Source: Bacteroidota bacterium (GTDB lineage: Bacteria > Bacteroidota > Bacteroidia > AKYH767-A > OLB10). From it: 64,000 bases of DNA. Every line of letters begins with the position of its first letter. The first letter of the stretch is position 1. Position numbers and translations under genes: made by a program. The stretch lies in NCBI GenBank assembly GCA_016717325.1, contig JADKFV010000017.1:1533-65532 (forward strand), in the 5' to 3' direction. The notes beneath the pieces were generated by a model. It saw nothing but the letters and a program-made list of their open reading frames with translations. It did no database searches and was not told where the DNA came from. Shown here piece after piece: positions 2,937 through 64,000 of this stretch.

Positions 2937-3104
2937 TTTTTTTGCAGATTTATTTGAGAATAATATTTTTTGCTGTTACTCGAAACTCATTCGTCAATTA
3001 CCAATTTAGCGGGGCAAGTTGCAACAAAATAAATATTATAATTTCTTTATGTGATCACAAGTCATTGCGACTGCACCATGCAATCTCTTCTACGTATAAC
3101 CATG

Positions 3105-3620
3105 TCACTGGAGAGATTGCTTCAGTCGTGCCTCCTTCGCGATGACGGGAGTGCATAAAATAATATCTGTATTCCTCCGTGTTCTCCGCGCCTCCGTGCG
3201 AAATGCATTTGAATTCCTCCGTGTTCTCTTTACCTCCGTGCGAAATGTATTTGCATTCTCAGTGCCACCATGCGAAAAATTTGACGCAAAGATTGCTTCA
3301 GTCGTACCTGCTTCTCGATGACGTAAGTGCCCAAAAAAACATTTGCATTCCTCCGTGTTCTCCACTCCTCTGTGCGAAACTTTTGCTTGCAGAGATTGCT
3401 TCAGTCGTACCTCCTTCGCAATGACGGGAGTGCATAAAATAATATCTGTATTCCTCCGTGTTCTCCGCGCCTCCGTGCGAAATGCATTTGAATTCCTCCG
3501 TGTTCTCTTTACCTCCGTGCGAAATGTATTTGCATTCTCAGTGCCACCATGCGAAAAATTTGATGCAGAGATTGCTTCAGTCGTTCCTCCTTCGCAATGA
3601 CGGAAGAAAAGAAATTTCAA
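3105..3620. repeat. Noncoding tandem repeat: about 285 bp duplicated twice, each copy holding 2.5 copies of a 42-bp subunit (TTCCTCCGTGTTCTC..CCTCCGTGCGAAATGCATTTG)
   Basis: Direct comparison of 3105-3392 with 3393-3600. Copies of the subunit also occur near 3800-3840 and 5758-5790. The 171-aa minus-strand ORF here shows the same duplication at protein level, so it is an artefact. Confidence 0.8.
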
Positions 3621-3800
3621 GCCAGCACTGGGGCTAAAAAAATATTTCGGCTAAAGCCAATACAAATTATTAAAACCGTCCGATAAATCGGACGGCAATG
3701 ATTTGCTTGCGCGAAAAACTTTGTGCTTTAGTGTCTTTGTGGCAAAAAAGTATTTGGCATCCGTTCTGGCATGGGTTGCTAAAAAGCATCTGTTCCAAAT
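3574..3800. repeat. Dispersed about 220-bp repeat, copy A. It starts with GAGATTGCTTCAGTCGTNCCTCCTTCGCAATGACG and contains the hairpin CCGTCCGATAAATCGGACGG.
   Basis: Near-identical to 6478-6700. The 35-mer head also occurs at 3113, 3287 and 3393. Confidence 0.8.
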
Positions 3801-3942
3801 TCCTCCGTGTTCTCAGTGCCTCCGTGCGAAATGCATTTATATTCTCACAAAAAAAATATTTCCCTCTCCCGTATGGAATAAACTTTTGCATTTCATCCTC
3901 ATACTGAAAATCAATTATAAAATTTACTAAAATAAAAATCGT

Positions 3943-6477: not shown

Positions 6478-6700
6478 GAGATTGCTTCAGTCGTACCTCC
6501 TTCGCAATGACGAAGGAAAGAGTATTCGTTCTTGCATTCGTGGTAAAAAAATATTTCGGCTAAAGCCAATACAAATTATAAATACCGTCCGATAAATCGG
6601 ACGGCAATGAATTGCTTTCGCAAAAGCTTTGTGCTTTGGTCTCTTTGTAGCAAAAAATTATTCGGCATTCATTCATGCATTCGTGGCTAAAAAGTATTGG
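6478..6700. repeat. Dispersed about 220-bp repeat, copy B (partner of 3574-3800)
   Basis: Same 35-mer head, same CCGTCCGATAAATCGGACGG hairpin and same trailing sequence as copy A. The two copies sit in direct orientation and bracket 3943-6384. Confidence 0.8.
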
Positions 6701-10670: not shown

Positions 10671-11845
10671 TGATTTATAATATAGAAAAACTGCGCAACA
10701 AATTATTGTTACCCATTGCTACAGAATGGATGGCAGAAAATGTAATGGATAAAAAGAATATTCCTTTACTAACACAAATGCAAAACGATGCATACAAACC
10801 ATCGCAAATAGCATTTCAGGTTGGGTTATTTTTGCTCACTTTTATTTTGGCTTTTTGCAGTGCCGGCCTGATTGCTATGTTTTTTGGATTTACAAATAGC
10901 AGCATGGCTTTCGGAATGATATGCTGTTTTTTTTCAATACTCAGTTTTGTTGCGGCCAATTATTTTATCAATACAAAATTGCATTTTAAAACCGGGGTCG
11001 ATACAGCCCTGTACTATTTTAGCATTATTAGCTTGATGCTTGGCATAGGTTTAATGCTCGATAATTTGTGGAACAATACCAGCACCCTCGTTGCTTTTTG
11101 TATGCTGTGCAGTGGGTTGCTTTTGCTTTACGCATTTCTGTTTTTCGATTTTGTGCTGGCCATGATTGCCATTATGGTATTTGCAACGGGATATGCAAAT
11201 GCCTTTTACGAAACAACAGCAATTATAAAACTTTGTGCCAGTTTACTTTTTCCATTTGTGTGTTTTGCTTTTTATAAAACCATACTCTATTTCGAATACA
11301 AAATGGATGTGGTATACCAAAACATTTTTCCTTATTGTAAATTCATGCTGGCAGTAGTTGCTTACATTGCTATCAACCGGTCGTTTATAAACGAAGTTTT
11401 TTTTGAGTATACTTTAAAATACCTCAATAAAAATGTGTTTGCTGCATTTTCTATTTTCTCTGTTGCATGGAGTTGGCTGCTTCCGTTAGTTTATATTTTT
11501 TACGGTTTATACAAAAACGAACGCTCGTTTCTTCTTGCGGGCATAACATGTATGGCATTGTTCATTTGTTCGATTCCGTATTTTCATCCTTCAGCTATTC
11601 CCGAAGTAATGATGCTGATAGGAAGTGTATCATGTTTTATTTTTGTTGGCCTGGCAAATTATTTTTTCAAAAACAATGCATGGAAAATAACACTACAAAA
11701 ATCGAAATACGATAGCGCAATCTTATCGAAAGAAATGCAAGGCATCATCCTGTCGCAAGCCATAGCAACCAAAACTATTTCGCAAGAAAGAACAGAATTT
11801 GGTGGTGGCAAGTTTGGTGGCGGGGGTGGTAGTGGGGAGTATTGA
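10670..11845 (+). CDS. Polytopic integral membrane protein (possibly DUF4401-like) with a Gly-rich C-terminal tail
   Basis: 391 aa, many TM helices. The C-terminus EFGGGKFGGGGGSGEY is encoded by G/T-rich DNA that runs straight into the GTATTGAG repeat arm. Confidence 0.5.
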   Translation: MIYNIEKLRNKLLLPIATEWMAENVMDKKNIPLLTQMQNDAYKPSQIAFQVGLFLLTFILAFCSAGLIAMFFGFTNSSMAFGMICCFFSILSFVAANYFINTKLHFKTGVDTALYYFSIISLMLGIGLMLDNLWNNTSTLVAFCMLCSGLLLLYAFLFFDFVLAMIAIMVFATGYANAFYETTAIIKLCASLLFPFVCFAFYKTILYFEYKMDVVYQNIFPYCKFMLAVVAYIAINRSFINEVFFEYTLKYLNKNVFAAFSIFSVAWSWLLPLVYIFYGLYKNERSFLLAGITCMALFICSIPYFHPSAIPEVMMLIGSVSCFIFVGLANYFFKNNAWKITLQKSKYDSAILSKEMQGIILSQAIATKTISQERTEFGGGKFGGGGGSGEY

Positions 11846-19235: not shown

Positions 19236-19690
19236 TCTGTCCTCGGTTGGCGTCCCCGCCACCCGCCTTGCTGCATACATTATTTACATATAAACCAAAA
19301 TCATATGCTGCATTTGAGACAATCGATTTATTATCAAATCGCATTCTAGTGTATTGCTAAAAATCCGAAATAAATCATAGCAAAATATAAAAATTGCTGT
19401 GAAATATTTTTCGAAATAAGCGGGTGGCGGGGACGCCAACCGAGGACAAAGAAATCATTCAAAGCAGAATATAAAAATTGCTGTTATATTTTTTTGCAAA
19501 ATATGCGGGTGGCGGGGACGCCAACCGAGGACAAAATCGGAAATCATTCATAGTAGAGTTTAAAAATTGTTTTGAAATATTTTTGAGATGTAAGCGATTG
19601 GCAGGGACGCCAACCGAGGACAAGGAATTGCTTTGTAATGTTTTGAGAAATAAACGGGTGGCTGCGAAGACAACCGAAGACAAGCAAAAA
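19236..19690. repeat. GC-rich tandem array: 4 direct copies of an about 85-bp unit containing GCGGGTGGCGGGGACGCCAACCGAGGACAA, plus one inverted copy at 19236-19268
   Basis: Core copies at about 19420, 19504, 19591 and 19655 (degenerate). The AT-rich parts between cores are also similar to each other, so this is not CRISPR. The cores are GC-rich inside an AT-rich genome. Confidence 0.8.
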
Positions 19691-49645: not shown

Positions 49646-49682
49646 GCACCCCCGACTTTTCTTCGGGGGCCTTTTTTTTTCT
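49646..49682 (+). terminator. Rho-independent terminator, CCCCC..GGGGG type
   Basis: GCACCCCCGACTTTTCTTCGGGGGCC followed by T10. Confidence 0.75.
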
Positions 49683-54467: not shown

Positions 54468-54982
54468 ATTATCGATTCAGAAAAATTATTTCAATCCGAG
54501 TTTTGCTTTTACTAATGGAAGAATAACAAAGCAAAATTTAATATCCGCTTTACCATTTAATAAACACAACTGTCATAATAAAATTGATGGCTAAAATTAG
54601 TAGTGAAAAATTCAGAGCGCAAAAGTATTTTAAAATTATACTCCTTTTTGTTTTGTGCAGAAATAAAAAATATGGTTCATAACTATCATGAAATTTGGTT
54701 TGCTTTAACAAAATCTAATTTTAATATTTGACGTATCGAAAGCAGATAGTGCAACATGCCCCCTTCGAAAAAGTTTTTTTTGAAGACCATTATTTTCTTA
54801 TAAAAGTGTAACGCCCGTTACCCATGTTATTTGGCTTTGTTTGTTTGCGTTACCAATTTTGTTCTACAATGTTTTACTAAACAAATTAAAAACAACGATT
54901 ATGCAAAATTCAAAAACACACTCCGAAAAAAAATTCTGTCAAACAGAAAAAATCTCAAACCTTGTTGATTGTGGCGCGATTA

Positions 54983-57900
54983 ATGATTATAACGCGAGCT
55001 CCCCCCCCCCCCCCCGAAAGGAAAGATAAACTCAAAATAATAAACAAAATTCTGCTGGCATTTATTTTGTTTCTCACTTCTAATCTATCTTATTCAAATA
55101 CATGCTTTAATTCAATTGTAAAAATTGTTACCCCAGCTTGTACTTATGATACTTTAACTACAAATGATTCTATAGTATGGTTTAGTTTTATCGCAACAAC
55201 ACCCAATACTGCCATTGCCTTTTATAAAAACGCCAATTCAGGCACTCCAATTTTTGAACAGGTTGAAATTTACGATGGCACATGTAATACGCTCAATTTA
55301 ATTGATACAGCAGAAATATTAAGTGATACTTTTTGCTTTAGTAATCGAAATAACTATGTGATTGGAAGTACATATTACATTAAATTGAAACAGAAATGTA
55401 TTCAAAATCAAACATGTTTCATCAACGCTAGTTCTGTTTTTGTAAGCATATACCAAACAATACTATATAATCAAAGCGTGGATCCATGTAACTATGTCAT
55501 AAATCCTCAATTTGAAATGGGGCCAATACCGCTGCTATTAGACCGCATAGTAACTGCCTCTGGTTGGTTCCGTAATTTAATTGGCAGCACATTGCCTTGT
55601 AATGGTTACAGCCCAAACACTCCAGATTTACTTGATGTAAATTCACCAAATCCAATTGTTCGACCTAACACAAATCAATATGGGAATGGCATACCATTTA
55701 CGCCTCATAGTGGAAATAGAGTTGCAAATTATGGAACTGCTGAATCTTTTGTGGGCACTGTATTTCCAAACTTGCCTGTTGGCACATATACATTCAGCTT
55801 TTATGCAATTATACAAGGGCAATTTTGTAATAATCCATACCTCAATAATTCATGTGTTGTCAATATAATGAGTAACTGTGGCACTAAGCAAAATATTTTT
55901 AACCAAACTATTAATATGAGCAATGCTAACTGCAATACGTGGACTTTGTTTCAATCCAGTTTTCAAATTACAAATACGAGTTTGAATAGGTTGGAATTCA
56001 CTTGGGATAACTCTAATACAAATTTACCGCACAATGGGCTTTATATTGATGACGTCTCAATTGCTAGAAGCTGCAAAACAACTATTACCACGACACTGCC
56101 TTGCATTGGACAAGCTAACGGAACTGCTACTGCCACTTCCGATTGCCCTGTTATTGATTATTTATGGAGCAATGGACAAACAACTTCAACAGCTACTGGA
56201 CTCTCAGCTGGTACGTATACTGTAACAGTTACTGACGACAAAGGCTGCTCGAGAACATCATCAATTATTTTAACTGAAATTAATGGGTTCACATTGTCAA
56301 TTTTTAGTACGCCTAATTGCATTGGCGACAATACTCATACAGGCACTGCTATAGTAACTCCTAGTGTAATAGGTCAATATACTTATTTATGGAATAATGG
56401 GCAAGTAACCTCAGTCGCTACTGGTTTAATTGCTGGCACTTACACTGTGACAGTTACAAACGTTAATGGATGTACGAAAACAGCTACTGTTATTGTGGAT
56501 AACTCATACTCTTTTACTGTAACCACCACCACCACAGGTGACTGCACAGGCGAAGCAACAGGCACGGCAACAGCAATCGCAAACCAACCGGGGCCACTCA
56601 CTTATTTATGGAGCAACGGCCAAACCACTCAAACAGCCACAGGCCTGTTTGCAGGTACGTATACTGCAACAGTTACCGATGCGAATGGCTGCACAAATAG
56701 TGCATCGGCAACTATAGTTGATTTAAGCGAAAATGTACCAATAATAAGTGCCAGCAGTTTCACATCCTGCATAAAAGATTTAGCGCAAACTTTTAAGGAC
56801 ATTGATTTGACAATAGACAATTATGTAAACGACCCTGCATACATATACACGTGGAGCTTTGTGCCAACGGGCGCGCCTGCCGCTACCTTGGTTGGCAATG
56901 GTAGCACAGCCGTGCTGACTACGTATGGTATGGGTGGTACCGTAACCGTTCACCTCAGCGTTAATGGCTGTGATTTTTATACTAACTATTATATACAAGA
57001 TTGCTGCGAAGGTGTGCCATCGCAACCAAACAGCACTACATTGGTTGATATAGATGCCTCTGACCTTATTGCTATGTATGGCGGTAATCCTACTGTAACC
57101 ACAAATGATAATTTATATTTTAATGGCACACTTACAGTTAACGTTCCGTTTTTTGCATTTAGCAATTGCCAATTTTTAAATTTTGGCCCTGCCGCAAAAA
57201 TTGTTTGCTCACCAAACACCACTTTACAAATAGATGGTAGTCACCTGCAAGCATGTAATACTATGTGGTATGGCATAGAAATGGGGCATAGCTCAAGTAT
57301 CATATTGGAAAATAATATTATACAAGATGCGCAGTATGCAGTGAAGGCAACAGATAATTGCCAAACAACTTTGGTAAACAACGATATGAATGATAACTTT
57401 GTATCGTATTATGTAGCGCCAAACATAACTTCGCAAATGATAAACGGAGCCATACAAGAAAATCGTTTTTATACTGTAAACCAATTGGTGCAGCCTTACC
57501 TTGGCCAAACACCCGTAATACACACGCACAGCTTTGCAGGTATATGGATAAACGATGTTACAGCACTTACCATTGGCTCATACAATGCGGCTGCGTCAAA
57601 AAATATTTTCCGCAACCTCAACAATGGCATTATAAGCAACCGCACCAACCTTACTTCGCTGTATAATATTTTTGACGATATAAGTAGCAAAGGTGGCTAT
57701 AGTGGTCTCACAAATACTACACTATTTAACCACACCGGTACAGGCATTACCGCTTATGGTGGTATAGGTTACATAGCAGATATAGCGGGCGATGCCGGGC
57801 CGGGCAATGCTGTGGAGTATATCAATTGCTTTCGTGGTATATATGTAGATGGCTTGCAAGCAAAAGTGTACGACCACGAATTTACCACTACCAACACTAC

Positions 57901-59764
57901 AGGTATAAACCGTATAGGCATAGCAGTAACTAATATGAACCATACGCCAACACATATATTTAGAAATACCATACATGCAACGCAGGCAGGTATACGAGCC
58001 ACCGAAAATTATGCAAGCGTTTATATTTACGACAATACAATTACAATAGATAACCCTGCATATAATCAATTTTTTAGAACAGGAATTTCTATTGATAATT
58101 TTACCAATGCACTTGGTGCTGATATAGATGTGCACCACAACCACGTATACATGACCGATGCCCGCAGAGGGATATGGCTGCGCAATATAAAAGGGGCATG
58201 GGTGCATGAGAATGATGTATGGATGCAATATGCAAACACATACCACACAGGCGGTGTTTACGACTATGGCATACTTGCCGAAAATAGCCCAAGTGGCACA
58301 ATAGACTGCAACAGCGTAACCGGCAATGCCTTCCAAGGCGACCCGGGTGCGGCCCCACAAACATTTGCATTTGGCTTTAACCTAAGCACCGACAACATAG
58401 TAAGCTGCAACCACAGCGACAATACCGATGTAGGTTTTAACTTTACAGGTGCCTGCCAAAATACAGATTTTAAAGGGAACCAAATTGATAGGCATTGGGC
58501 GGGGTTGAGGTTGGCAAGTAGTGTGTTTGGTGTCCAGAATGATGCAGGGAATTTGTGGCATCTTAGGCATACATATCCGGCACTTGGAGCTAGGTTGGAT
58601 TTTAGTGCTCCACTCCCAAATGAAATACGTACTCCAGCAGTATTGCCCTACACACCGATTAATAATGGGGGATTTAATACTTGGTTCAAAGCTCCCAATG
58701 CTGCACCATATAGTTGTTCATCTTTATATTGCTCTGCACCATTCCGCATAGGTGGGGATAGCAGCGTTATAAATGAAGATGAATTGCGAGCAATTGAAGG
58801 TGATAGTGTTGTTACAGAATTTAATCCTCAAGTTAGTGACGATACGAAAAAACGATTGTACGAGAAACTACTTAGTAATCCAACTTTACAAAATACAAGC
58901 AGTGATATAACGCAGTACTTTGCTGAAGCACAAAATAATGACATTGGTACTGTAAATGCTGTAAAAAATAAAACTAGTGAAGTGGGTGAATTAATAAAGA
59001 GTAATGCCACTTTAATCAATCCATTAGCCAATGCTCAAAATGCGCTTTTGTTGCAGTTAAGAACAAATGATAGCATAATTAATACTACTACAGATAGCTT
59101 GCTGAAATTAATTTTAATTGAACAAAATAACATTCTTTCAAATGGACTTGACAGTTTAAAAGAGCAAATAGAAACTATATCCATTGGGGAACAAATAGTA
59201 GAAAATCAAAAGTATGACGAAGCAAAAACAATAAACAACAATATGATGGCACAAGAAGTTTTTGACTATAATACGAGTGTTATAACTGATATTTATTTAT
59301 CGAAAATTGCAAAAAATAATTTTCAATTAAGCACAGCACAGATTAATGAAGTAGTTAGCATTGCAAACATGTGTCCACTAATAGGTGGTCCTGCCGTGTA
59401 TTTGGCAAGGCCGATTGTAGAGCTATATGATGAAAACATTGTTTACAATGACCAAGCTGTATGCTTGAGCCAGGGCGTAAGTATGAAATTAGCAAATGGA
59501 AATGCTCCAACACAAGCAAATGAAAACACAGTGGTGCAAGTTTTTCCAATACCAAGTAAGGATGTTGTAAATTTTAATTTTGGCAACCTCCAATTTAATG
59601 GTCTGTTGATATTTGATAGCTATGGAAAACAAATTGAAGAAGTAAAATTAAATGTAAAGCACCAATACACTTTGCAAACAAATGTATTTGCAAACGGTAT
59701 ATATCGTTATAAATTAATGAACGATACGATTGAATTAACGGGTAAAATTGTAATTGTAAAATAA
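54983..59764 (+). CDS. Giant T9SS-secreted adhesin-like protein: SprB-type repeats, right-handed parallel beta-helix region, type-A CTD
   Basis: About 1594 aa from ATG 54983. Four repeats of the form C.G.ANGTATA..YLWSNGQTT..TGL.AGTYTVTVTD. Beta-helix-like NN.I..N blocks. CTD ..NGIYRYKLMNDTIELTGKIVIVK. The signal region contains PPPPP, encoded by C15. Confidence 0.75.
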   Translation: MIITRAPPPPPERKDKLKIINKILLAFILFLTSNLSYSNTCFNSIVKIVTPACTYDTLTTNDSIVWFSFIATTPNTAIAFYKNANSGTPIFEQVEIYDGTCNTLNLIDTAEILSDTFCFSNRNNYVIGSTYYIKLKQKCIQNQTCFINASSVFVSIYQTILYNQSVDPCNYVINPQFEMGPIPLLLDRIVTASGWFRNLIGSTLPCNGYSPNTPDLLDVNSPNPIVRPNTNQYGNGIPFTPHSGNRVANYGTAESFVGTVFPNLPVGTYTFSFYAIIQGQFCNNPYLNNSCVVNIMSNCGTKQNIFNQTINMSNANCNTWTLFQSSFQITNTSLNRLEFTWDNSNTNLPHNGLYIDDVSIARSCKTTITTTLPCIGQANGTATATSDCPVIDYLWSNGQTTSTATGLSAGTYTVTVTDDKGCSRTSSIILTEINGFTLSIFSTPNCIGDNTHTGTAIVTPSVIGQYTYLWNNGQVTSVATGLIAGTYTVTVTNVNGCTKTATVIVDNSYSFTVTTTTTGDCTGEATGTATAIANQPGPLTYLWSNGQTTQTATGLFAGTYTATVTDANGCTNSASATIVDLSENVPIISASSFTSCIKDLAQTFKDIDLTIDNYVNDPAYIYTWSFVPTGAPAATLVGNGSTAVLTTYGMGGTVTVHLSVNGCDFYTNYYIQDCCEGVPSQPNSTTLVDIDASDLIAMYGGNPTVTTNDNLYFNGTLTVNVPFFAFSNCQFLNFGPAAKIVCSPNTTLQIDGSHLQACNTMWYGIEMGHSSSIILENNIIQDAQYAVKATDNCQTTLVNNDMNDNFVSYYVAPNITSQMINGAIQENRFYTVNQLVQPYLGQTPVIHTHSFAGIWINDVTALTIGSYNAAASKNIFRNLNNGIISNRTNLTSLYNIFDDISSKGGYSGLTNTTLFNHTGTGITAYGGIGYIADIAGDAGPGNAVEYINCFRGIYVDGLQAKVYDHEFTTTNTTGINRIGIAVTNMNHTPTHIFRNTIHATQAGIRATENYASVYIYDNTITIDNPAYNQFFRTGISIDNFTNALGADIDVHHNHVYMTDARRGIWLRNIKGAWVHENDVWMQYANTYHTGGVYDYGILAENSPSGTIDCNSVTGNAFQGDPGAAPQTFAFGFNLSTDNIVSCNHSDNTDVGFNFTGACQNTDFKGNQIDRHWAGLRLASSVFGVQNDAGNLWHLRHTYPALGARLDFSAPLPNEIRTPAVLPYTPINNGGFNTWFKAPNAAPYSCSSLYCSAPFRIGGDSSVINEDELRAIEGDSVVTEFNPQVSDDTKKRLYEKLLSNPTLQNTSSDITQYFAEAQNNDIGTVNAVKNKTSEVGELIKSNATLINPLANAQNALLLQLRTNDSIINTTTDSLLKLILIEQNNILSNGLDSLKEQIETISIGEQIVENQKYDEAKTINNNMMAQEVFDYNTSVITDIYLSKIAKNNFQLSTAQINEVVSIANMCPLIGGPAVYLARPIVELYDENIVYNDQAVCLSQGVSMKLANGNAPTQANENTVVQVFPIPSKDVVNFNFGNLQFNGLLIFDSYGKQIEEVKLNVKHQYTLQTNVFANGIYRYKLMNDTIELTGKIVIVK
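55001..55015 (+). repeat. C15 homopolymeric tract inside the 5-prime coding region (signal-peptide n-region) of the giant T9SS gene
   Basis: Seen directly: GAGCT C15 GAAAGG. It encodes PPPPP in the current frame. Confidence 0.9.
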
Positions 59765-59771
59765 TTATTAG

Positions 59772-59808
59772 AAAGGGAAACAGGTAATTCTGTTTCCCTT
59801 TTATTTTT
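59772..59808 (+). terminator. Rho-independent terminator
   Basis: AGGGAAACAG-GTAATT-CTGTTTCCCT hairpin followed by a T-rich run. Confidence 0.7.
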
Positions 59809-59817
59809 AAAATAACG

Positions 59818-61314
59818 ATGAAAAAAAATATTTTGATTTTATTGTTTTGTACTTGTTATACAACAATGTTTGCGCAAAAATACATGAATAATCTTGCTTT
59901 TAATGGAGAATATTTTTTATCTAATGACTCTTTTAATTTTATTTTAAGCAACTATAAGTTGAATACTCCTGTATATCAATATCTTGATTCTTCCGATTTG
60001 TGGATGGGTAACCATTCTGCATTAATAGCTGACAGCACTGGGCAGTTAATTTTCTATACAAATGGATGCTCAGTAGGGAATAAAAATTTTGAAATGATAC
60101 CAGGTACTGATACCTTGGAATATACAAGCATAGTTATCACTTGCCCCTATGGCCAACCAAACTTGAATGGGGCATTTTTTCTACCCTCACTCACAAATCC
60201 AAATGAAATTCTTTTGTTTCATAAAGACGATCAGTTTACTACCAATTGGAATTGGATTTTTGCCACAAGTTACAATGCTTGGTTTACGGTGCTTGACAAA
60301 ACTATGAATAATGGCTTAGGCGGCTTGGTATCGCGTAATAATATTTTGTATAATACTGAAACATGCAGAGATGGATTTCAAGCAGTGAAACATGCTAATG
60401 GCAGGGATTATTGGATTGTGATGCAAGATTTTGATACCAGTACTTTTGTTACTTTTCTCTACACGCCTACCGGTTTTTCTGTGCCCTTTTTTCAAAATAT
60501 GAATATCCCTCTTTATCGTGGGGGTACGCCTAATGCTATATTTAATAGACAAGGCACAAAATATGCAACCACCGCTTGGAATAATAATTTAATGCTATTT
60601 GACTTTGACAGATGTACCGGGCAGTTCAAATATAATAATCAGGTTGATACTACTTGGCAATATTTAGGTTTTTTCTTTTGCTTTTCGGCAAAAGGCAACA
60701 AAATATATCGAATGGATAACAGCGATAAAATTTACCAATACGATACTGCCGATGTTGATTTTAATATTTCGCGCGATACGGTTGCTATATACGATGGATT
60801 CTTTGATGGTGATTCCACAAAATTCGTTACAATGTTTTTAGCTGCCGATGATAAAATATACATAAATTCAGCTATTGGCTATCAACATGTGATTAACAAA
60901 CCTGATTTGACTGGCATTTCATGTAATATTTTGCAGCACAGCATTAAACACCCGGCATCGGTTGGTAATGCCTTCCCCAACTACATCAACTACGATTTAG
61001 GGCCGCTTCTGGGTAGCCCATGTGATACGCTTTCTATCCTCACCCCGGCCCTCTCCAAAGGAGAGCGTGTAATGCAATGCTTTCCTAATCCGGCAACAAA
61101 TGAAGTAAACATAAAAATAAACAATGTGCCGCTTGGTAATTATACACTTAGTATATACACACCGTTAGCCAATGAGGTAATGCACATAGAAGGCAAAAGC
61201 ACGGTAAAAGATTTTACAAAAACATTACGTGTTCAGAGCCTTGCAAGTGGTTTTTATTTTGTAAAGTTGCAGGTGGAGGAAATGGAGTGGTATGGGAGGT
61301 TTGTGAGGGAGTAG
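59818..61314 (+). CDS. T9SS type-A CTD secreted protein, paralog P1
   Basis: 498 aa. Signal peptide. CTD CFPNPATNEVNIKINNVPLGNYTLSIY..FYFVKL. Paralogous along its whole length to 62336..63838. Confidence 0.7.
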   Translation: MKKNILILLFCTCYTTMFAQKYMNNLAFNGEYFLSNDSFNFILSNYKLNTPVYQYLDSSDLWMGNHSALIADSTGQLIFYTNGCSVGNKNFEMIPGTDTLEYTSIVITCPYGQPNLNGAFFLPSLTNPNEILLFHKDDQFTTNWNWIFATSYNAWFTVLDKTMNNGLGGLVSRNNILYNTETCRDGFQAVKHANGRDYWIVMQDFDTSTFVTFLYTPTGFSVPFFQNMNIPLYRGGTPNAIFNRQGTKYATTAWNNNLMLFDFDRCTGQFKYNNQVDTTWQYLGFFFCFSAKGNKIYRMDNSDKIYQYDTADVDFNISRDTVAIYDGFFDGDSTKFVTMFLAADDKIYINSAIGYQHVINKPDLTGISCNILQHSIKHPASVGNAFPNYINYDLGPLLGSPCDTLSILTPALSKGERVMQCFPNPATNEVNIKINNVPLGNYTLSIYTPLANEVMHIEGKSTVKDFTKTLRVQSLASGFYFVKLQVEEMEWYGRFVRE

Positions 61315-61349
61315 CCCCTAAATCCCCCGCTGGGGGACTTGAACACCCC

Positions 61350-61880
61350 CAACCCCCGCTGGGGGCTTACCAAAGCTCGGATGGCATATTGTGTGTTTAT
61401 CTTATTTAGTTGCAAAAAAAATGGTATCTCATGGATAAATTGTATTTTGAAAGTTTGTATAAAGGCGCAAAGCCAATTCAATTTGAATTTGCACAACAGA
61501 TGCGCAAAGAGCCTACACAGGCAGAATCAATTTTATGGACATATTTATCCGGCAAGCAAATGCAAGGTTTGAAATTTAGAAGGCAACATCCATTAGACAA
61601 TTTTATTTTAGATTTTTATTGTCATGAAATAAAATTGAGTATCGAATTGGATGGGAAAATACATCAGAATGAATTGCAAGCAACTTATGATAAAGAACGA
61701 ACCAAGTGCTTACAAGATAAGGGCATTAACGAACTCCGATTTAAAAATGAAACAATCATTAATCGAATTACTGATGCACTCAATGAAATTGAAAAAACAA
61801 TAAGACAAATAAAACGAAAGCAATATGATACCAAAAATCCAGCATAGCAAAGACAAGCCCCCAGCGGGGGTTGGGGGTGT
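61350..61880. mobile_element. Mini-element: DUF559 endonuclease-like gene flanked by perfect 20-bp GC-rich terminal inverted repeats (CCCCCAACCCCCGCTGGGGG on the left, CCCCCAGCGGGGGTTGGGGG on the right)
   Basis: The left repeat at about 61350-61375 and the right repeat at about 61856-61880 are exact reverse complements. An extra CCCCCGCTGGGGG hairpin lies at 61333. Inserted between two paralogous genes. Confidence 0.6.
61410..61847 (+). CDS. DUF559 domain protein (Vsr/restriction-endonuclease-like fold)
   Basis: 145 aa. ESILW..LKFRRQHPLDNFILDFYCHEIKLSIELDGKIH..YDKERTKCLQDKGINELRFKN matches the DUF559 signature (FRRQ, DFYC, IELDG.H, D.ER, LRF.N). Confidence 0.75.
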   Translation: MQKKWYLMDKLYFESLYKGAKPIQFEFAQQMRKEPTQAESILWTYLSGKQMQGLKFRRQHPLDNFILDFYCHEIKLSIELDGKIHQNELQATYDKERTKCLQDKGINELRFKNETIINRITDALNEIEKTIRQIKRKQYDTKNPA

Positions 61881-61888
61881 ATTATTAC

Positions 61889-62280
61889 CGCAATGCCCCC
61901 TGATAGGTGGCTCAGCTGTGTATTTGGCAAGACCAATTGTAGAAATGTTTGATGACAATATCATGTACAATGATGCGGCAATTTGTTTAAGTCAAGGGGT
62001 TATTATGAAAATGTCAAATCAAGTAACAGCGGATGAAACTATTGCCACCGTAAAAGTATATCCAAACCCGGCTAAAGATGAAATCAATTTTGAATTTGGG
62101 AACGGCACATATTTCAAACTAATTATTTATGATAGTTTTGGTAAAGAAATACGTTTGGAATTAATGCAAAGCAAAATTGAATACAAATTATCAACCACAG
62201 ATATTGCAAATGGCATTTATCGTTATAAGTTAATTGGTGTGCCACATGAAATATCCGGAAAAATTGTAATATTAAAGTAA
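61889..62280 (+). pseudogene. Orphan C-terminal fragment (last about 130 aa including the T9SS CTD) homologous to the C-terminus of the giant 54983..59764 protein
   Basis: CPLIGGSAVYLARPIVEMFDDNIMYNDAAICLSQGV..NGIYRYKLIGVPHEISGKIVILK aligns with the giant's ..NMCPLIGGPAVYLARPIVELYDENIVYNDQAVCLSQGV..NGIYRYKLMNDTIELTGKIVIVK. Homology begins right after the DUF559 element's right repeat. Confidence 0.6.
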
Positions 62281-62289
62281 ATAAAAATA

Positions 62290-62321
62290 AAGAGAAGTTG
62301 TTAAGGCAACTTCTCTTTTTA
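62290..62321 (+). terminator. Rho-independent terminator
   Basis: AGAGAAGTTG-TTAAGG-CAACTTCTCT hairpin followed by T5. Confidence 0.6.
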
Positions 62322-62335
62322 CATTCTACTAAACA

Positions 62336-63838
62336 ATGAAAAGTTTAATAATTTTAATTTTCACTTTTTGTACCCATGCATGTTTTTCGCAGAAGTATTT
62401 AAACAACTTAGCCTTCTTTGGGTATAACTATGGTGGAAATGACTCTAACTTTGTTCTTATTGATTATAAAAATGGCATTCCAATTAATCAATACATTGAT
62501 TCATCCGCTTTGAAAATGAATGCTACTCTTGCATTAATTGCCGATAGTATCGGGAATTTACTTTTTTACACAAACGGAACAAGAATAGGAAATAAAAATT
62601 TAGAAGTGATACCAAATGGAGATACTTTGGATGCGAGTCCTTGCGGATTAAATTGGGGGCAACAAGGCTTTGGGTTAAATATGCCAAATGGTGCTTTCTT
62701 CTTGCCCTCCTTATCAAATCCAAATGAAGTTTTGCTTTTTCATTTAGATTGTGATTACATTATTTTGTTTAATATGGCACTTGGCTTAAGTCATAATTTT
62801 TGGTACACAGTACTTGATACTACAATGAACAATGGACTTGGGGGTGTGGTAACAAGAAACAATGTATTATACAATGGTGAGCTGGGTTGGGGCGGTTTGC
62901 AAGCCGTAAAACATTCAAATGGTAAAGATTATTGGTTAGTGGCACAAGATTTAGACACCTCTTATTTTATTACTTGGTTATATTCTGATGCAGGATTTGC
63001 TGGTCCTTTTTTTCAAAATTTGAATATACCACTTTGGCGAATAACAACAGTTAATTCAATGTTTAATCGCCAGGGAAATAAATATGCATCTGTTGCTTGG
63101 AATCAGAATTTAATGTTGTTTGATTTTGATAGATGTACCGGGCAATTTAAATTTAACAATCAAGAGGATACAGCTTGGTTGTATTTAGGCAATTTGTTCT
63201 GCTTTTCATCAAATGGAAATAAAATTTATCGAACAGATGGCACAAATATTTTTCAATACGACACAGCCGATGTTGACTTTAATATTTCGCGCGATACGGT
63301 TGCTATATATGACGGATATTTTGATGTTGACTCGACAAAATTTGGCACCATGTTTTTAGCTGGGGATGATAAAATTTATATTAATGCATCGGGAACAAAA
63401 TATCAACATGTAATAAATAAGCCTGATTTGTCAGGTATTGCATGTAATTTAACGCAACATTCCATTAAGCATCCGCTTTATATTGGTGCTTCCTTCCCCA
63501 ACTACATCAACTACGATTTAGGGCCGCTTGTGGGGAGTCCGTGTGATACTTTATCTGTCCTCACCAATACCCCCAACCCCCTACAAGGGGGCTTAATGCA
63601 ATGCTTTCCAAACCCGGCAACAAATGAAGTAAACATAAAAATAAACAATGTGCCGCTTGGTAATTATGTACTTAGTATATACTCACCGTTAGCCTATGAG
63701 GTAATGCACATAGAAAGCAAAAACACTGCGAAAGATTTTACAAAAACATTACGCGTTCAGAGCCTTGCAAGTGGTTTTTATTTTGTAAAGTTGCAGGTGG
63801 AGGGGATGGAGTGGTATGGGCGGTTTGTGAGGGATTAG
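62336..63838 (+). CDS. T9SS type-A CTD secreted protein, paralog P2
   Basis: 500 aa. Collinear with P1. Identical CTD core. Differs by a short GC-rich palindromic segment at the domain junction. Confidence 0.7.
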   Translation: MKSLIILIFTFCTHACFSQKYLNNLAFFGYNYGGNDSNFVLIDYKNGIPINQYIDSSALKMNATLALIADSIGNLLFYTNGTRIGNKNLEVIPNGDTLDASPCGLNWGQQGFGLNMPNGAFFLPSLSNPNEVLLFHLDCDYIILFNMALGLSHNFWYTVLDTTMNNGLGGVVTRNNVLYNGELGWGGLQAVKHSNGKDYWLVAQDLDTSYFITWLYSDAGFAGPFFQNLNIPLWRITTVNSMFNRQGNKYASVAWNQNLMLFDFDRCTGQFKFNNQEDTAWLYLGNLFCFSSNGNKIYRTDGTNIFQYDTADVDFNISRDTVAIYDGYFDVDSTKFGTMFLAGDDKIYINASGTKYQHVINKPDLSGIACNLTQHSIKHPLYIGASFPNYINYDLGPLVGSPCDTLSVLTNTPNPLQGGLMQCFPNPATNEVNIKINNVPLGNYVLSIYSPLAYEVMHIESKNTAKDFTKTLRVQSLASGFYFVKLQVEGMEWYGRFVRD

Positions 63839-64000
63839 TTTATAAGGCTCGGGGCACTATGGTCGTGATGCCGACCAAAGTGTCGGTATTTAAAAGTTCA
63901 ACGTTGGGGGGTTTTGCAAGTTGAGCATTGGGAATGGTTAACAAATTTAGCATCCATTCGGCAAAGCGCACCCGTGGCCCTAAAGGGCGCAGCCGCAATA

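Follow-up and report, generated by a model that had tools for sequence, protein, structure and literature searches.

Three-block repeats in frame in paralogous T9SS cargo genes of a Bacteroidota bacterium and their association with DUF559 genes

Results

Paralogous T9SS genes with different segments in one linker

We analyzed a 64-kb stretch of DNA (64,000 nucleotides of contig JADKFV010000017.1 from a Bacteroidota bacterium; hereafter the window), with a GC content of 33-41%, in which two paralogous genes carry different short GC-rich palindromic segments in frame at one position. The genes are P1 (59818-61314, plus strand, 498 aa) and P2 (62336-63838, plus strand, 500 aa), and both are present as described in an earlier note on this DNA. 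They encode proteins secreted by the type IX secretion system (T9SS); P1 comprises a passenger domain rich in beta structure, followed by a linker and then the sorting domain at the C terminus (CTD). Both open reading frames (ORFs) end in the Por_Secre_tail domain that characterizes type A T9SS cargo, with PF18962 matching P1 and P2 at E-values of 3e-10 and 4e-10 (residues 422-488 in P1) and TIGR04183 matching as well. The AlphaFold model of P1 has a mean pLDDT of 75 and shows the CTD as a beta-sandwich (residues 420-497); pLDDT falls below 50 exactly at residues 405-416, the stretch encoded by the palindromic element, which is accordingly modeled as a disordered linker between the passenger domain and the CTD. 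P1 and P2 are 69% identical. They had been reported as collinear except at the junction before the CTD, but several further indels separate them. P1 has 963 homologs, eight of which, from related Bacteroidota assemblies, show 71-81% identity, and two related contigs (L001 and L002) bear arrays of P paralogs.

In a DNA alignment of the 3' ends, a 25-nt block of P1, CCGGCCCTCTCCAAAGGAGAGCGTG, stands against a wholly different 28-nt block of P2, AATACCCCCAACCCCCTACAAGGGGGCT (63566-63593), and both are bounded by the identical flanks CCTCACC and TAATGCAATGC. The P1 hairpin core, CTCTCC-AAA-GGAGAG (61051-61065, plus strand), is the sole match to its pattern in 64 kb, where shuffles lead us to expect 0.00, and contributes to the peptide TPALSKGERV. 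The P2 hairpin, CCCCC-TACAA-GGGGG, lies at 63577-63591 within CCCCCAACCCCCTACAAGGGGGC (63570-63592); the segment encodes NTPNPLQGGL, and the coordinates in the earlier note (63553-63580) fall short by about 15 nt. The pattern CCCCC N3-8 GGGGG has 4 matches in 64 kb compared to 0.01 expected, and the other three surround a DUF559 gene located between P1 and P2. Because the GC content of the window is so low, these GC-rich segments stand out. The earlier observation therefore holds: each paralog has a short stem-loop, rich in GC and in frame, and the two occupy the same place in the linker, with a chance expectation of at most 0.01.

Three-block elements of two families

We scanned the window for a block followed by its mirror image and then, after a loop of 3-6 nt, by the complement of that mirror. 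This three-block scan returned exactly 5 motifs in 64 kb and 0 in 20 simulated windows. The motifs are located in the P1 linker (61038-61067), in an element termed B' behind P1 (61315-61337), in the two inverted repeats that enclose the DUF559 gene and in the P2 linker (63570-63591), and all of them fall between 61038 and 63591, i.e. inside 2.6 kb. The type A element in P1 (61038-61067, plus strand) reads CCTCACCCC-GG-CCCTCTCC-AAA-GGAGAGCG, comprises a mirror block and the hairpin, and encodes LTPALSKGE; the CCTCACC flank is part of it. The type B element in P2 (63570-63594, plus strand) reads CCCCC-AA-CCCCC-TACAA-GGGGG-CTT and encodes TPNPLQGGL. Since the mirror block upstream belongs to the motif, the hairpins noticed earlier represent the 3' two-thirds of a larger unit. 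The P1 copy, CCTCACCCCGGCCCTCTCC-AAA-GGAGAG, is decayed, with a 6-bp stem of -4.2 kcal/mol (z-score -1.4), and relatives of P1 have an intact stem of 8-9 bp.

The P1 copy resembles BoxC of E. coli, later called PIT and then TM_ECO, which has the pattern CCCTCNCCC N3-6 GGGNGAGGG N3 GGGNGAGGG with TTA or CCG as its second loop (PMC4666352). On the minus strand type A reads CCCTCTCC-TTT-GGAGAGGG-CCG-GGGTGAGG, in which each of the blocks CCCTCTCC, GGAGAGGG and GGGTGAGG matches the TM_ECO consensus at 8/9 positions and the second loop is CCG exactly; a copy in L001 (8698-8727) has TTG where TM_ECO has TTA. The published TM_ECO pattern has no match in the window, in L001, in L002 or in a further locus (L123), even with 2 substitutions allowed per block, because the blocks of type A are 8 nt long. 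When its blocks are cut to 8 nt and up to 1 substitution is allowed in each, it matches P1, two copies in L001 and a distant P homolog (P0075). Type B has the same three-block design with 5-nt blocks and does not fit the TM_ECO pattern. Three blocks of the intrastrand-triplex type, the feature that defines BoxC/PIT/TM_ECO, are present in P1, in P2 and in the DUF559 flanks.

The two linker hairpins had been placed in a single CCCCC..GGGGG family. P2 indeed belongs with the repeats flanking the DUF559 gene, as suggested, since its block and the DUF559 inverted repeat share CCCCCAACCCCC and GGGGGCTTA (identical blocks of 13 and 9 nt) and differ in the loop alone. P1 does not: the P1 (BoxC/TM_ECO-like) and P2 (C5-type) elements are members of two families that have only the three-block design in common. 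A hairpin near 49650 had been counted in the same family and lacks the three-block structure. It was rejected as a candidate, as CCCCCGA-CTTTTCT-TCGGGGG at 49649-49669 forms, downstream of a 1497-aa ORF, a 7-bp stem with a T run behind it and is an ordinary intrinsic terminator. An Rfam scan of 59000-64000 with E-values up to 1 gave two chance-level matches near 59750 and none at the elements.

Dispersal of the two families

The hairpins had been expected in excess elsewhere in the genome. There is no such excess in the rest of the window, but the elements are present across public genomes. We searched for type B with the exact pattern CCCCCAACCCCC N3-5 GGGGGCTT in one genome per species and found at least 138 copies at no fewer than 120 genome loci with unrelated flanks. 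Among the matches listed, the hosts are mostly Bacteroidota (Dyadobacter, Pedobacter, Larkinella, Paludibacter, Chitinophagaceae and others) and some loci belong to Spirochaetota or Chloroflexota; the loop is TAAA or TGAA in 75/138 copies; and an inverted hairpin partner lies within 150 nt downstream of 50/126 testable copies and upstream of 5/126. The frequency of downstream partners implies that the natural unit of type B is often a doublet, like that around the DUF559 gene of the window.

Type A, searched in metagenome contigs as CACCCCGGCCCTCTCC N3-4 GGAGAGGG, is represented by at least 127 copies on at least 120 contigs. The flanks are unique, and CCT precedes every copy listed. All 127 of the 127 listed copies fit the TM_ECO pattern trimmed to 8-nt blocks, which has 0 matches in 100 shuffles. 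The median GC content of these contigs, 57% among the matches listed, points to phyla other than that of the window. To judge from these matches, both linker segments are in-frame members of dispersed three-block repeat families.

Replacement at the linker site

Nine P paralogs from three assemblies carry three discrete linker segments, A, B and C, between identical flanks. Type A, CCGGCCCTCTCC-AAA-GGAGAGGG, is intact in relatives and decayed in P1, and type C reads CCGGTCTCGCC-TCA-GGCGAGAGG; as DNA, the three types fold into stems of 6-9 bp with 3-nt loops at -4 to -8 kcal/mol. The type of hairpin is independent of the similarity of the flanks. On either side of the segment, P2 (type B) is most similar to paralogs of type A, and the four B segments, those of P2 and of three L001/L002 paralogs, are identical at 28/28 positions despite 21-26 differences per 120 positions in the flanks upstream of them. 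The P gene bodies are ~70% identical in DNA, compared to 92-96% in the last ~300 nt (61000-61314 in P1 and 63520-63838 in P2). As the last ~300 nt are far more alike than the bodies, the 3' ends of the paralogs are being homogenized, and the CTD-coding ends undergo concerted evolution (gene conversion). Common ancestry plus conversion of the 3' ends accounts for the shared position of the elements, which gives no evidence of two independent hits. A mobile CTD cassette bracketed by elements was considered and rejected, as the hairpins after the P2 stop codon are unrelated and the homogenization begins ~100 nt upstream of the linker element.

The same site is also occupied outside the close relatives. 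Type A is intact at the linker site of the L001 copies and of the homolog P0075, a protein only 33% identical and from another assembly, in which it has the same site and frame and reads CTCACCCCGGCCCTCTCCAAAGGAGAGGG. In the homolog P0115 the linker contains AAGTCCCCTTTCGGGTGATTTAGGGG, a reversed B' element, and in P0008 a B variant. Most of the 120 best homologs outside the close clade have ordinary linkers, for example SDVPTISSSVQS. The distance between the GSxCD and PNP motifs that border the linker is 22-24 residues, equal with or without an element, and linker sequence has therefore been replaced rather than lengthened. The alignment of homologs thus bears out a cassette, as distinct from ordinary divergence, but not the proposed insertion, since ordinary linkers have equal length. 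In view of at least four element types with the same boundaries among paralogs and distant homologs, the P linker appears to be a permissive hot spot. No target-site duplication is recognizable at the P linker, at the RecQ site described below or at the DUF559 unit, where the sequences are too diverged to decide.

Elements in frame in other proteins

Type B lies deep within long open frames in 17/150 cases. By inspection it is in frame in RecQ (L028), in the ATPase domain of a histidine kinase (L063), in a glycosidase (L096) and in a primase-like protein (L113), and type A is in frame in proteins with LeuRS, AspRS (LTPALSQGEG), PurL, PheRS and RsmA signatures. RecQ is informative as to its empty state. 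Among 120 orthologs of the Chitinophagaceae type, empty forms of 634 aa read DKL-EFKTKKI-FRQSF, and most others have 9-40 extra residues at exactly that point, with varied hairpin peptides (PLTPLHKWRGEQ, PPHPPNGGPEK, QSPLSGGWG and others); in DNA, the site contains B-type elements in both orientations. RecQ thus shows a true polymorphism of empty and filled forms and, like the P linker, a single tolerant site with a succession of element types. The primase-like ORF of L113 (5370-6944, minus strand) includes SPLTPEGGT twice, VPPSGAEGA, KAPFGGWGL and KTPPSGAGGL, and in L063, too, a single protein has several different GC-rich elements in frame. Some Bacteroidota genomes appear to be heavily colonized by such elements.

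The DUF559 unit and its counterparts in other genomes

Directly 3' of the P1 stop codon, the B' element (61315-61340, plus strand; CCCCTAAATCCCCC-GCT-GGGGGACTT) found by the three-block scan is followed by a unit in which a perfect 26-bp inverted repeat, ACACCCCCAACCCCCGCTGGGGGCTT, encloses the DUF559 gene. The left terminal repeat (61343-61368, plus strand) is a B element, CCCCCAACCCCC-GCT-GGGGGCTT, that matches the right repeat (61855-61880, minus strand), an inverted B element, perfectly. The gene (61431-61847, plus strand) encodes a 138-aa protein of the Vsr/PD-(D/E)XK-like type with a match to PF04480 (E-value 2.5e-31, 108 bits) and to PDB entry 3HRL, an "endonuclease-like protein" (E-value 1.8e-18); NCBIfam PRK09767/YcjD-like scores below its cut-off. 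The PF04480 match and the solved endonuclease-like fold identify it as a putative DUF559/Vsr-like endonuclease with predicted nuclease activity. The "DUF559 repeats" of the earlier note are the flanks of this single gene; the 64-kb window contains no further DUF559 copy. In L001 (~11498-11530) the same gene end occurs without the unit, and 61343-61880 looks like a compact unit, a tiny mobile or homing cassette. The B' motif is also found 5' of DUF559 genes in three other loci (L039, L073 and L076) and in cyanobacterial plasmids.

Overlapping the end of the gene, a 151-aa ORF (61825-62280, plus strand) is 55% identical to the end of the 1600-aa ORF at 54962-59764 and represents a C-terminal remnant, CTD (PF18962) included, of a paralog of that large protein. 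It marks the junction of a tandem duplication, at which the DUF559 unit lies. The duplicated unit consists of the end of the large protein plus a P gene, with the DUF559 cassette at the junction, and L001/L002 have three or four such units. At the edge of the window, a GCGCACCCGTGGCCCTAAAGGGCGCAGCCGC repeat (63966-64000, plus strand) in relatives precedes a second DUF559 lineage. The GC-rich repeat GCACACCCGTGGCCCTAAAGGGCGC (63966-64000; L001 6870-7010; L124 2250-2350) lies 5' of this 42%-identical lineage, with an inverted copy 3', and the window ends just short of the expected start of that gene.

We clustered the ORFs within 300 bp of either repeat type (240 loci, among the matches listed), and DUF559 was the sole recurrent real family. 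At 10 independent loci or more, a DUF559 gene lies between inverted repeat copies. One DUF559 lineage is enclosed by type A and another by types B and B', and a third lineage (L001, L124 and immediately outside the window edge) comes with a repeat of its own, CACCCGTGGCCCTAAAGGGCGC. As a control for bias, nine DUF559 genes were chosen by protein similarity alone from plasmid and chromid records of two cyanobacterial orders, Alpha-, Beta- and Gammaproteobacteria, and Deinococcus. Six of the nine have 2-6 strict three-block motifs within 400 bp (0.00 in simulation), five of them on both sides, and the remaining three have imperfect GC-rich TM-like repeats, as judged by eye. Inverted repeats around the sampled genes reach 43 bp in Pseudanabaena and 56 bp in Deinococcus. 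The latter case, on the Deinococcus psychrotolerans plasmid NZ_CP034185.1 (298040-299148; L256), is a DUF559 unit between paaD and paaZ of the phenylacetate operon, and its near-perfect 56-bp inverted repeats contain a three-block motif each.

In E. coli K-12, the DUF559 gene ycjD adjoins an inverted BoxC/TM_ECO pair (NC_000913.3, 1351200-1351425; L248), and the 45-nt element at ycjD has a median of 19 copies per genome in 5,426 genomes. Within the 154-nt spacer between the two BoxC copies, the 3' end of ycjD is found once more in degenerate form, which suggests a decayed DUF559 gene nested in the BoxC pair. In the literature that we found, whose coverage is incomplete, there was no link between DUF559 and these repeats and no description of them in frame in Bacteroidota.

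Other features of the window

Region 3100-3850 is a dense array of a TTCCTCCGTGTTCTC..CCTCCGTGCGAAA repeat that includes a 279-bp direct duplication (3177/3456), and the ORF at 3105-3620 (minus strand) within it is probably spurious. The intergenic region 19237-19680, 5' of a 1034-aa ORF, contains five copies of GCGGGTGGCGGGGACGCCAACCGAGGACAA, the first of which is inverted relative to the others. An identical 20-nt hairpin, CCGTCCGATAAATCGGACGG, occurs at 3676-3695 and 6585-6604, 2.9 kb apart. A C15 homopolymer at 55001-55015, just 5' of the point at which the 1600-aa T9SS protein, with its signal peptide, probably starts, is a candidate tract for phase variation by slipped-strand mispairing.

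Discussion

Taken as a whole, the most likely explanation is that the segments in P1 and P2 are in-frame copies of dispersed three-block repeats, replaced at a hot spot and linked to DUF559 genes, and we hold it with good but not full confidence. The repeats themselves, their dispersal, their occurrence in frame, the replacement at one site and the association with DUF559 are direct observations; the agent and the mode of spread we infer. Each repeat of ~25-31 nt combines a pyrimidine block, its mirror and the complement of the mirror into a hairpin that could take up a third strand. Between passenger domain and CTD, the disordered linker tolerates a Pro/Gly-rich peptide of 8-10 residues, and most reading frames of the repeats are open. 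Elements replace one another or the linker sequence rather than simply add to it, and within this genome the paralogs owe the shared position of the element to their common ancestry and to conversion of the last ~300 nt of the gene. Exchange may begin with a structure- or sequence-specific nick or break at a repeat, and repair of the break by copying another family member, or by short-patch conversion, would result in spread, homogenization and type swapping. As the agent of the break, the DUF559 nuclease would be the first candidate. Within coding sequence, copies would persist only where they are in frame and where a loop or linker tolerates them, and their effect on the protein is probably neutral, which would make them passengers.

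A more specific proposal is that DUF559 proteins are the cognate enzymes of BoxC/PIT-type repeats, as the REP-associated tyrosine transposases (RAYT) are for repetitive extragenic palindromic (REP) sequences, nicking or cleaving the motifs so that repair copies them. We advance it tentatively, as possible rather than probable. If true, it would explain the conservation across phyla, the doublets, the local instability and the cassette-like turnover, including that of in-frame copies in T9SS cargo, RecQ and aminoacyl-tRNA synthetases.

Several observations weigh against these interpretations. An isolated TM_ECO strand forms a triplex, but Holder et al. (2015, PMC4666352) saw no stable triplex in double-stranded DNA or in vivo. 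Type A does not fit the published TM_ECO expression and conforms to it only with blocks trimmed to 8 nt, and the P1 copy is decayed and folds weakly. The motifs of the window are clustered in 2.6 kb with no excess elsewhere in it, and with five copies in so short a stretch the source genome may contain few of them overall. A search of the 120 best homologs revealed no element-less P allele among close relatives; as distant linkers are also of equal length, an insertion event is hypothetical for the P gene. The tie between DUF559 and the repeats appears as adjacency, which would be equally expected if DUF559 genes home into the repeats. Finally, RAYT transposases, the known mobilizers of REP sequences, exist in Bacteroidota and could lie outside the window.

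This last point leads to an alternative in which the elements are mobilized in trans by a RAYT elsewhere in the genome and DUF559 is a selfish passenger in REP doublets. The size of 25-31 nt, the inverted doublets and the copies in ORFs match the behavior of REP sequences and of the paired REPIN form (PMC3733652), and RAYT subclasses 2.4 and 2.6 occur in Bacteroidetes, where REPs are found in genes (PMC6006769). In addition, the GGGGWSAS motif in the inverted repeats of TIRYT transposase genes corresponds to the GGGGTGAG block of type A, and one locus (L044) has a RAYT-like ORF. On the other hand, the elements have neither a GTAG nor a CGTC tag, and no RAYT lies in the window or within 300 bp of an element in 240 loci. 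DUF559 is the sole recurrent neighbor, and its lineages carry different flanking repeats, as expected for a cognate pair. We regard mobilization by a RAYT as unlikely, though it is the most serious of the alternatives.

The segments could also be nucleic-acid structures selected at this locus for a translation pause before the CTD, for mRNA stability or processing, or as a breakpoint for exchange of CTD cassettes. Three to four foldable sequences with 6-9 bp stems and 3-nt loops do occur at one site, the hairpin segment is better conserved than its flanks, the homogenized 3' region spans the hairpin, and elements recur at this linker in distant homologs. Each variant, however, belongs to a family dispersed over hundreds of unrelated loci, and its sequence has therefore not been shaped locally. 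Furthermore, most of the 120 best homologs have ordinary linkers free of hairpins, the P1 copy is decaying, homogenization starts ~100 nt upstream of the hairpin and not at it, and PIT/BoxC had no promoter, terminator or polymerase effects in vivo (PMC4666352). Local selection is accordingly improbable. Least credible of all, to the point that we would give it almost no weight, is an ordinary variable Pro/Gly linker in which hairpins arise by chance through the complementarity of Pro (CCN) and Gly (GGN) codons. The sequence at this position does vary, at similar length, in all homologs, the peptides are rich in Pro and Gly, and both window copies have weak fold z-scores (-1.4). Such a coincidence is at odds with a genome GC content of 33-41%, with the 0.00-0.01 hairpins given by shuffles and with the absence of three-block motifs from simulated windows. 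Moreover, P2 shares identical 13- and 9-nt blocks with an inverted repeat 2.2 kb upstream, the 30-nt type A element is identical in the homolog of an unrelated organism whose protein is only 33% identical, and the family matches, with 127/127 listed metagenome copies of type A fitting the 8-nt-block pattern, refute chance.

Work on short GC-rich repeats of the BoxC/PIT type goes back to the 1990s; they are conserved in many bacteria and have been connected with unstable genomes. The DUF559 domain is very widespread, and we know of no established role for it. The locus described here shows that such repeats can be carried in frame within proteins in Bacteroidota, that one linker or loop can host a succession of repeat types, and that DUF559 genes and these repeats go hand in hand in several phyla, as they do in E. 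coli. Two questions are thereby joined and can be addressed through YcjD and BoxC. For annotation, recurrent peptides of the PALSKGEG, PNPLKGA or SPLSGGWG kind should be read as derived from repeats and not as domain signatures. In-frame REP-like repeats are already known outside Rickettsia, and the main value of the present work is the lead that connects BoxC/PIT with DUF559.

Comparison with known repeat systems

Rickettsia palindromic elements are ~100-150 bp long, encode 30-50 residues and are not known from outside Rickettsia. As cited in PMC3733652, Ogata et al. (2000) described them as palindromic repeats in frame within ORFs. The earlier note had compared the linker segments to these elements, and the likeness holds for palindromic repeats dispersed in frame at tolerated positions of functional-looking ORFs and also between genes: copies are found in P1, P2, RecQ, a histidine kinase, LeuRS and AspRS as well as in intergenic regions. 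It does not extend to size or host, since the present elements are 25-31 nt long, encode 8-10 residues, have a three-block structure, occur across phyla and reside in Bacteroidota proteins, and a relationship in sequence is not to be expected. Nor are in-frame elements without precedent beyond Rickettsia. REP-type repeats within ORFs, including repair and tRNA synthetase genes, are documented in several phyla (Di Nocera et al. 2013, PMC3733652), and the RAYT subclasses 2.4 and 2.6 of Bacteroidetes have atypical flanking structures and REPs that insert into genes (Quentin et al. 2018, PMC6006769).

The present elements share with REP/REPIN-RAYT and TIRYT systems short, GC-rich, multicopy palindromes, inverted doublets, occasional copies in ORFs, a small gene between inverted repeats, and a repeat type that co-varies with the lineage of that gene. 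A REP is an imperfect palindrome of 20-40 bp, repeated and often in inverted doublets, which agrees with the elements in size and in the 50/126 copies with partners, and the GGGGWSAS motif described for the inverted repeats of TIRYT transposase genes (PMC3733652) matches the type A block GGGGTGAG. The consensus ends of types A, B and B' carry neither the GTAG nor the CGTC end tag of REPs (PMC3733652). The nested gene is also different, encoding a DUF559 endonuclease of Vsr/PD-(D/E)XK fold and not an HUH Y1 transposase; our search for the HUH and Y motifs of RAYTs gave no such ORF in the window and one in 246 loci (L044), 5.5 kb from the element. With homing endonucleases and selfish nuclease cassettes the DUF559 unit has in common a small, free-standing nuclease gene bounded by repeats, located cleanly between host genes or at a duplication junction, and sites that lack the unit in relatives (L001 and the Deinococcus paaD/paaZ case). 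It differs in having no intron or intein context, and its putative target is a dispersed structured repeat instead of a unique conserved site in a gene.

The closest likeness in structure is to BoxC/PIT/TM_ECO, on which Bergler (1992) and Hoyne et al. (2000) reportedly worked. Common to both are a C-rich block, a loop, a complementary G-rich block, a 3-nt loop and a mirror G-rich block, as well as copies that are single or in inverted pairs, conservation across taxa, unique flanks and local rearrangement. The first BoxC described adjoins ycjD, the DUF559 gene of E. coli. In MG1655, TM_ECO is always intergenic, often in inverted pairs and tied to local instability (PMC4666352), whereas the P1 and P2 copies are in frame in coding sequence. 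The host is here a low-GC member of the Bacteroidota, and the block length is 8 nt in type A and 5 nt in type B. While BoxC/PIT/TM_ECO has been described as having no known function and no link to mobile elements or to a mobilizing gene (PMC4666352), in the genomes analyzed here DUF559 genes are consistently nested in the repeats.

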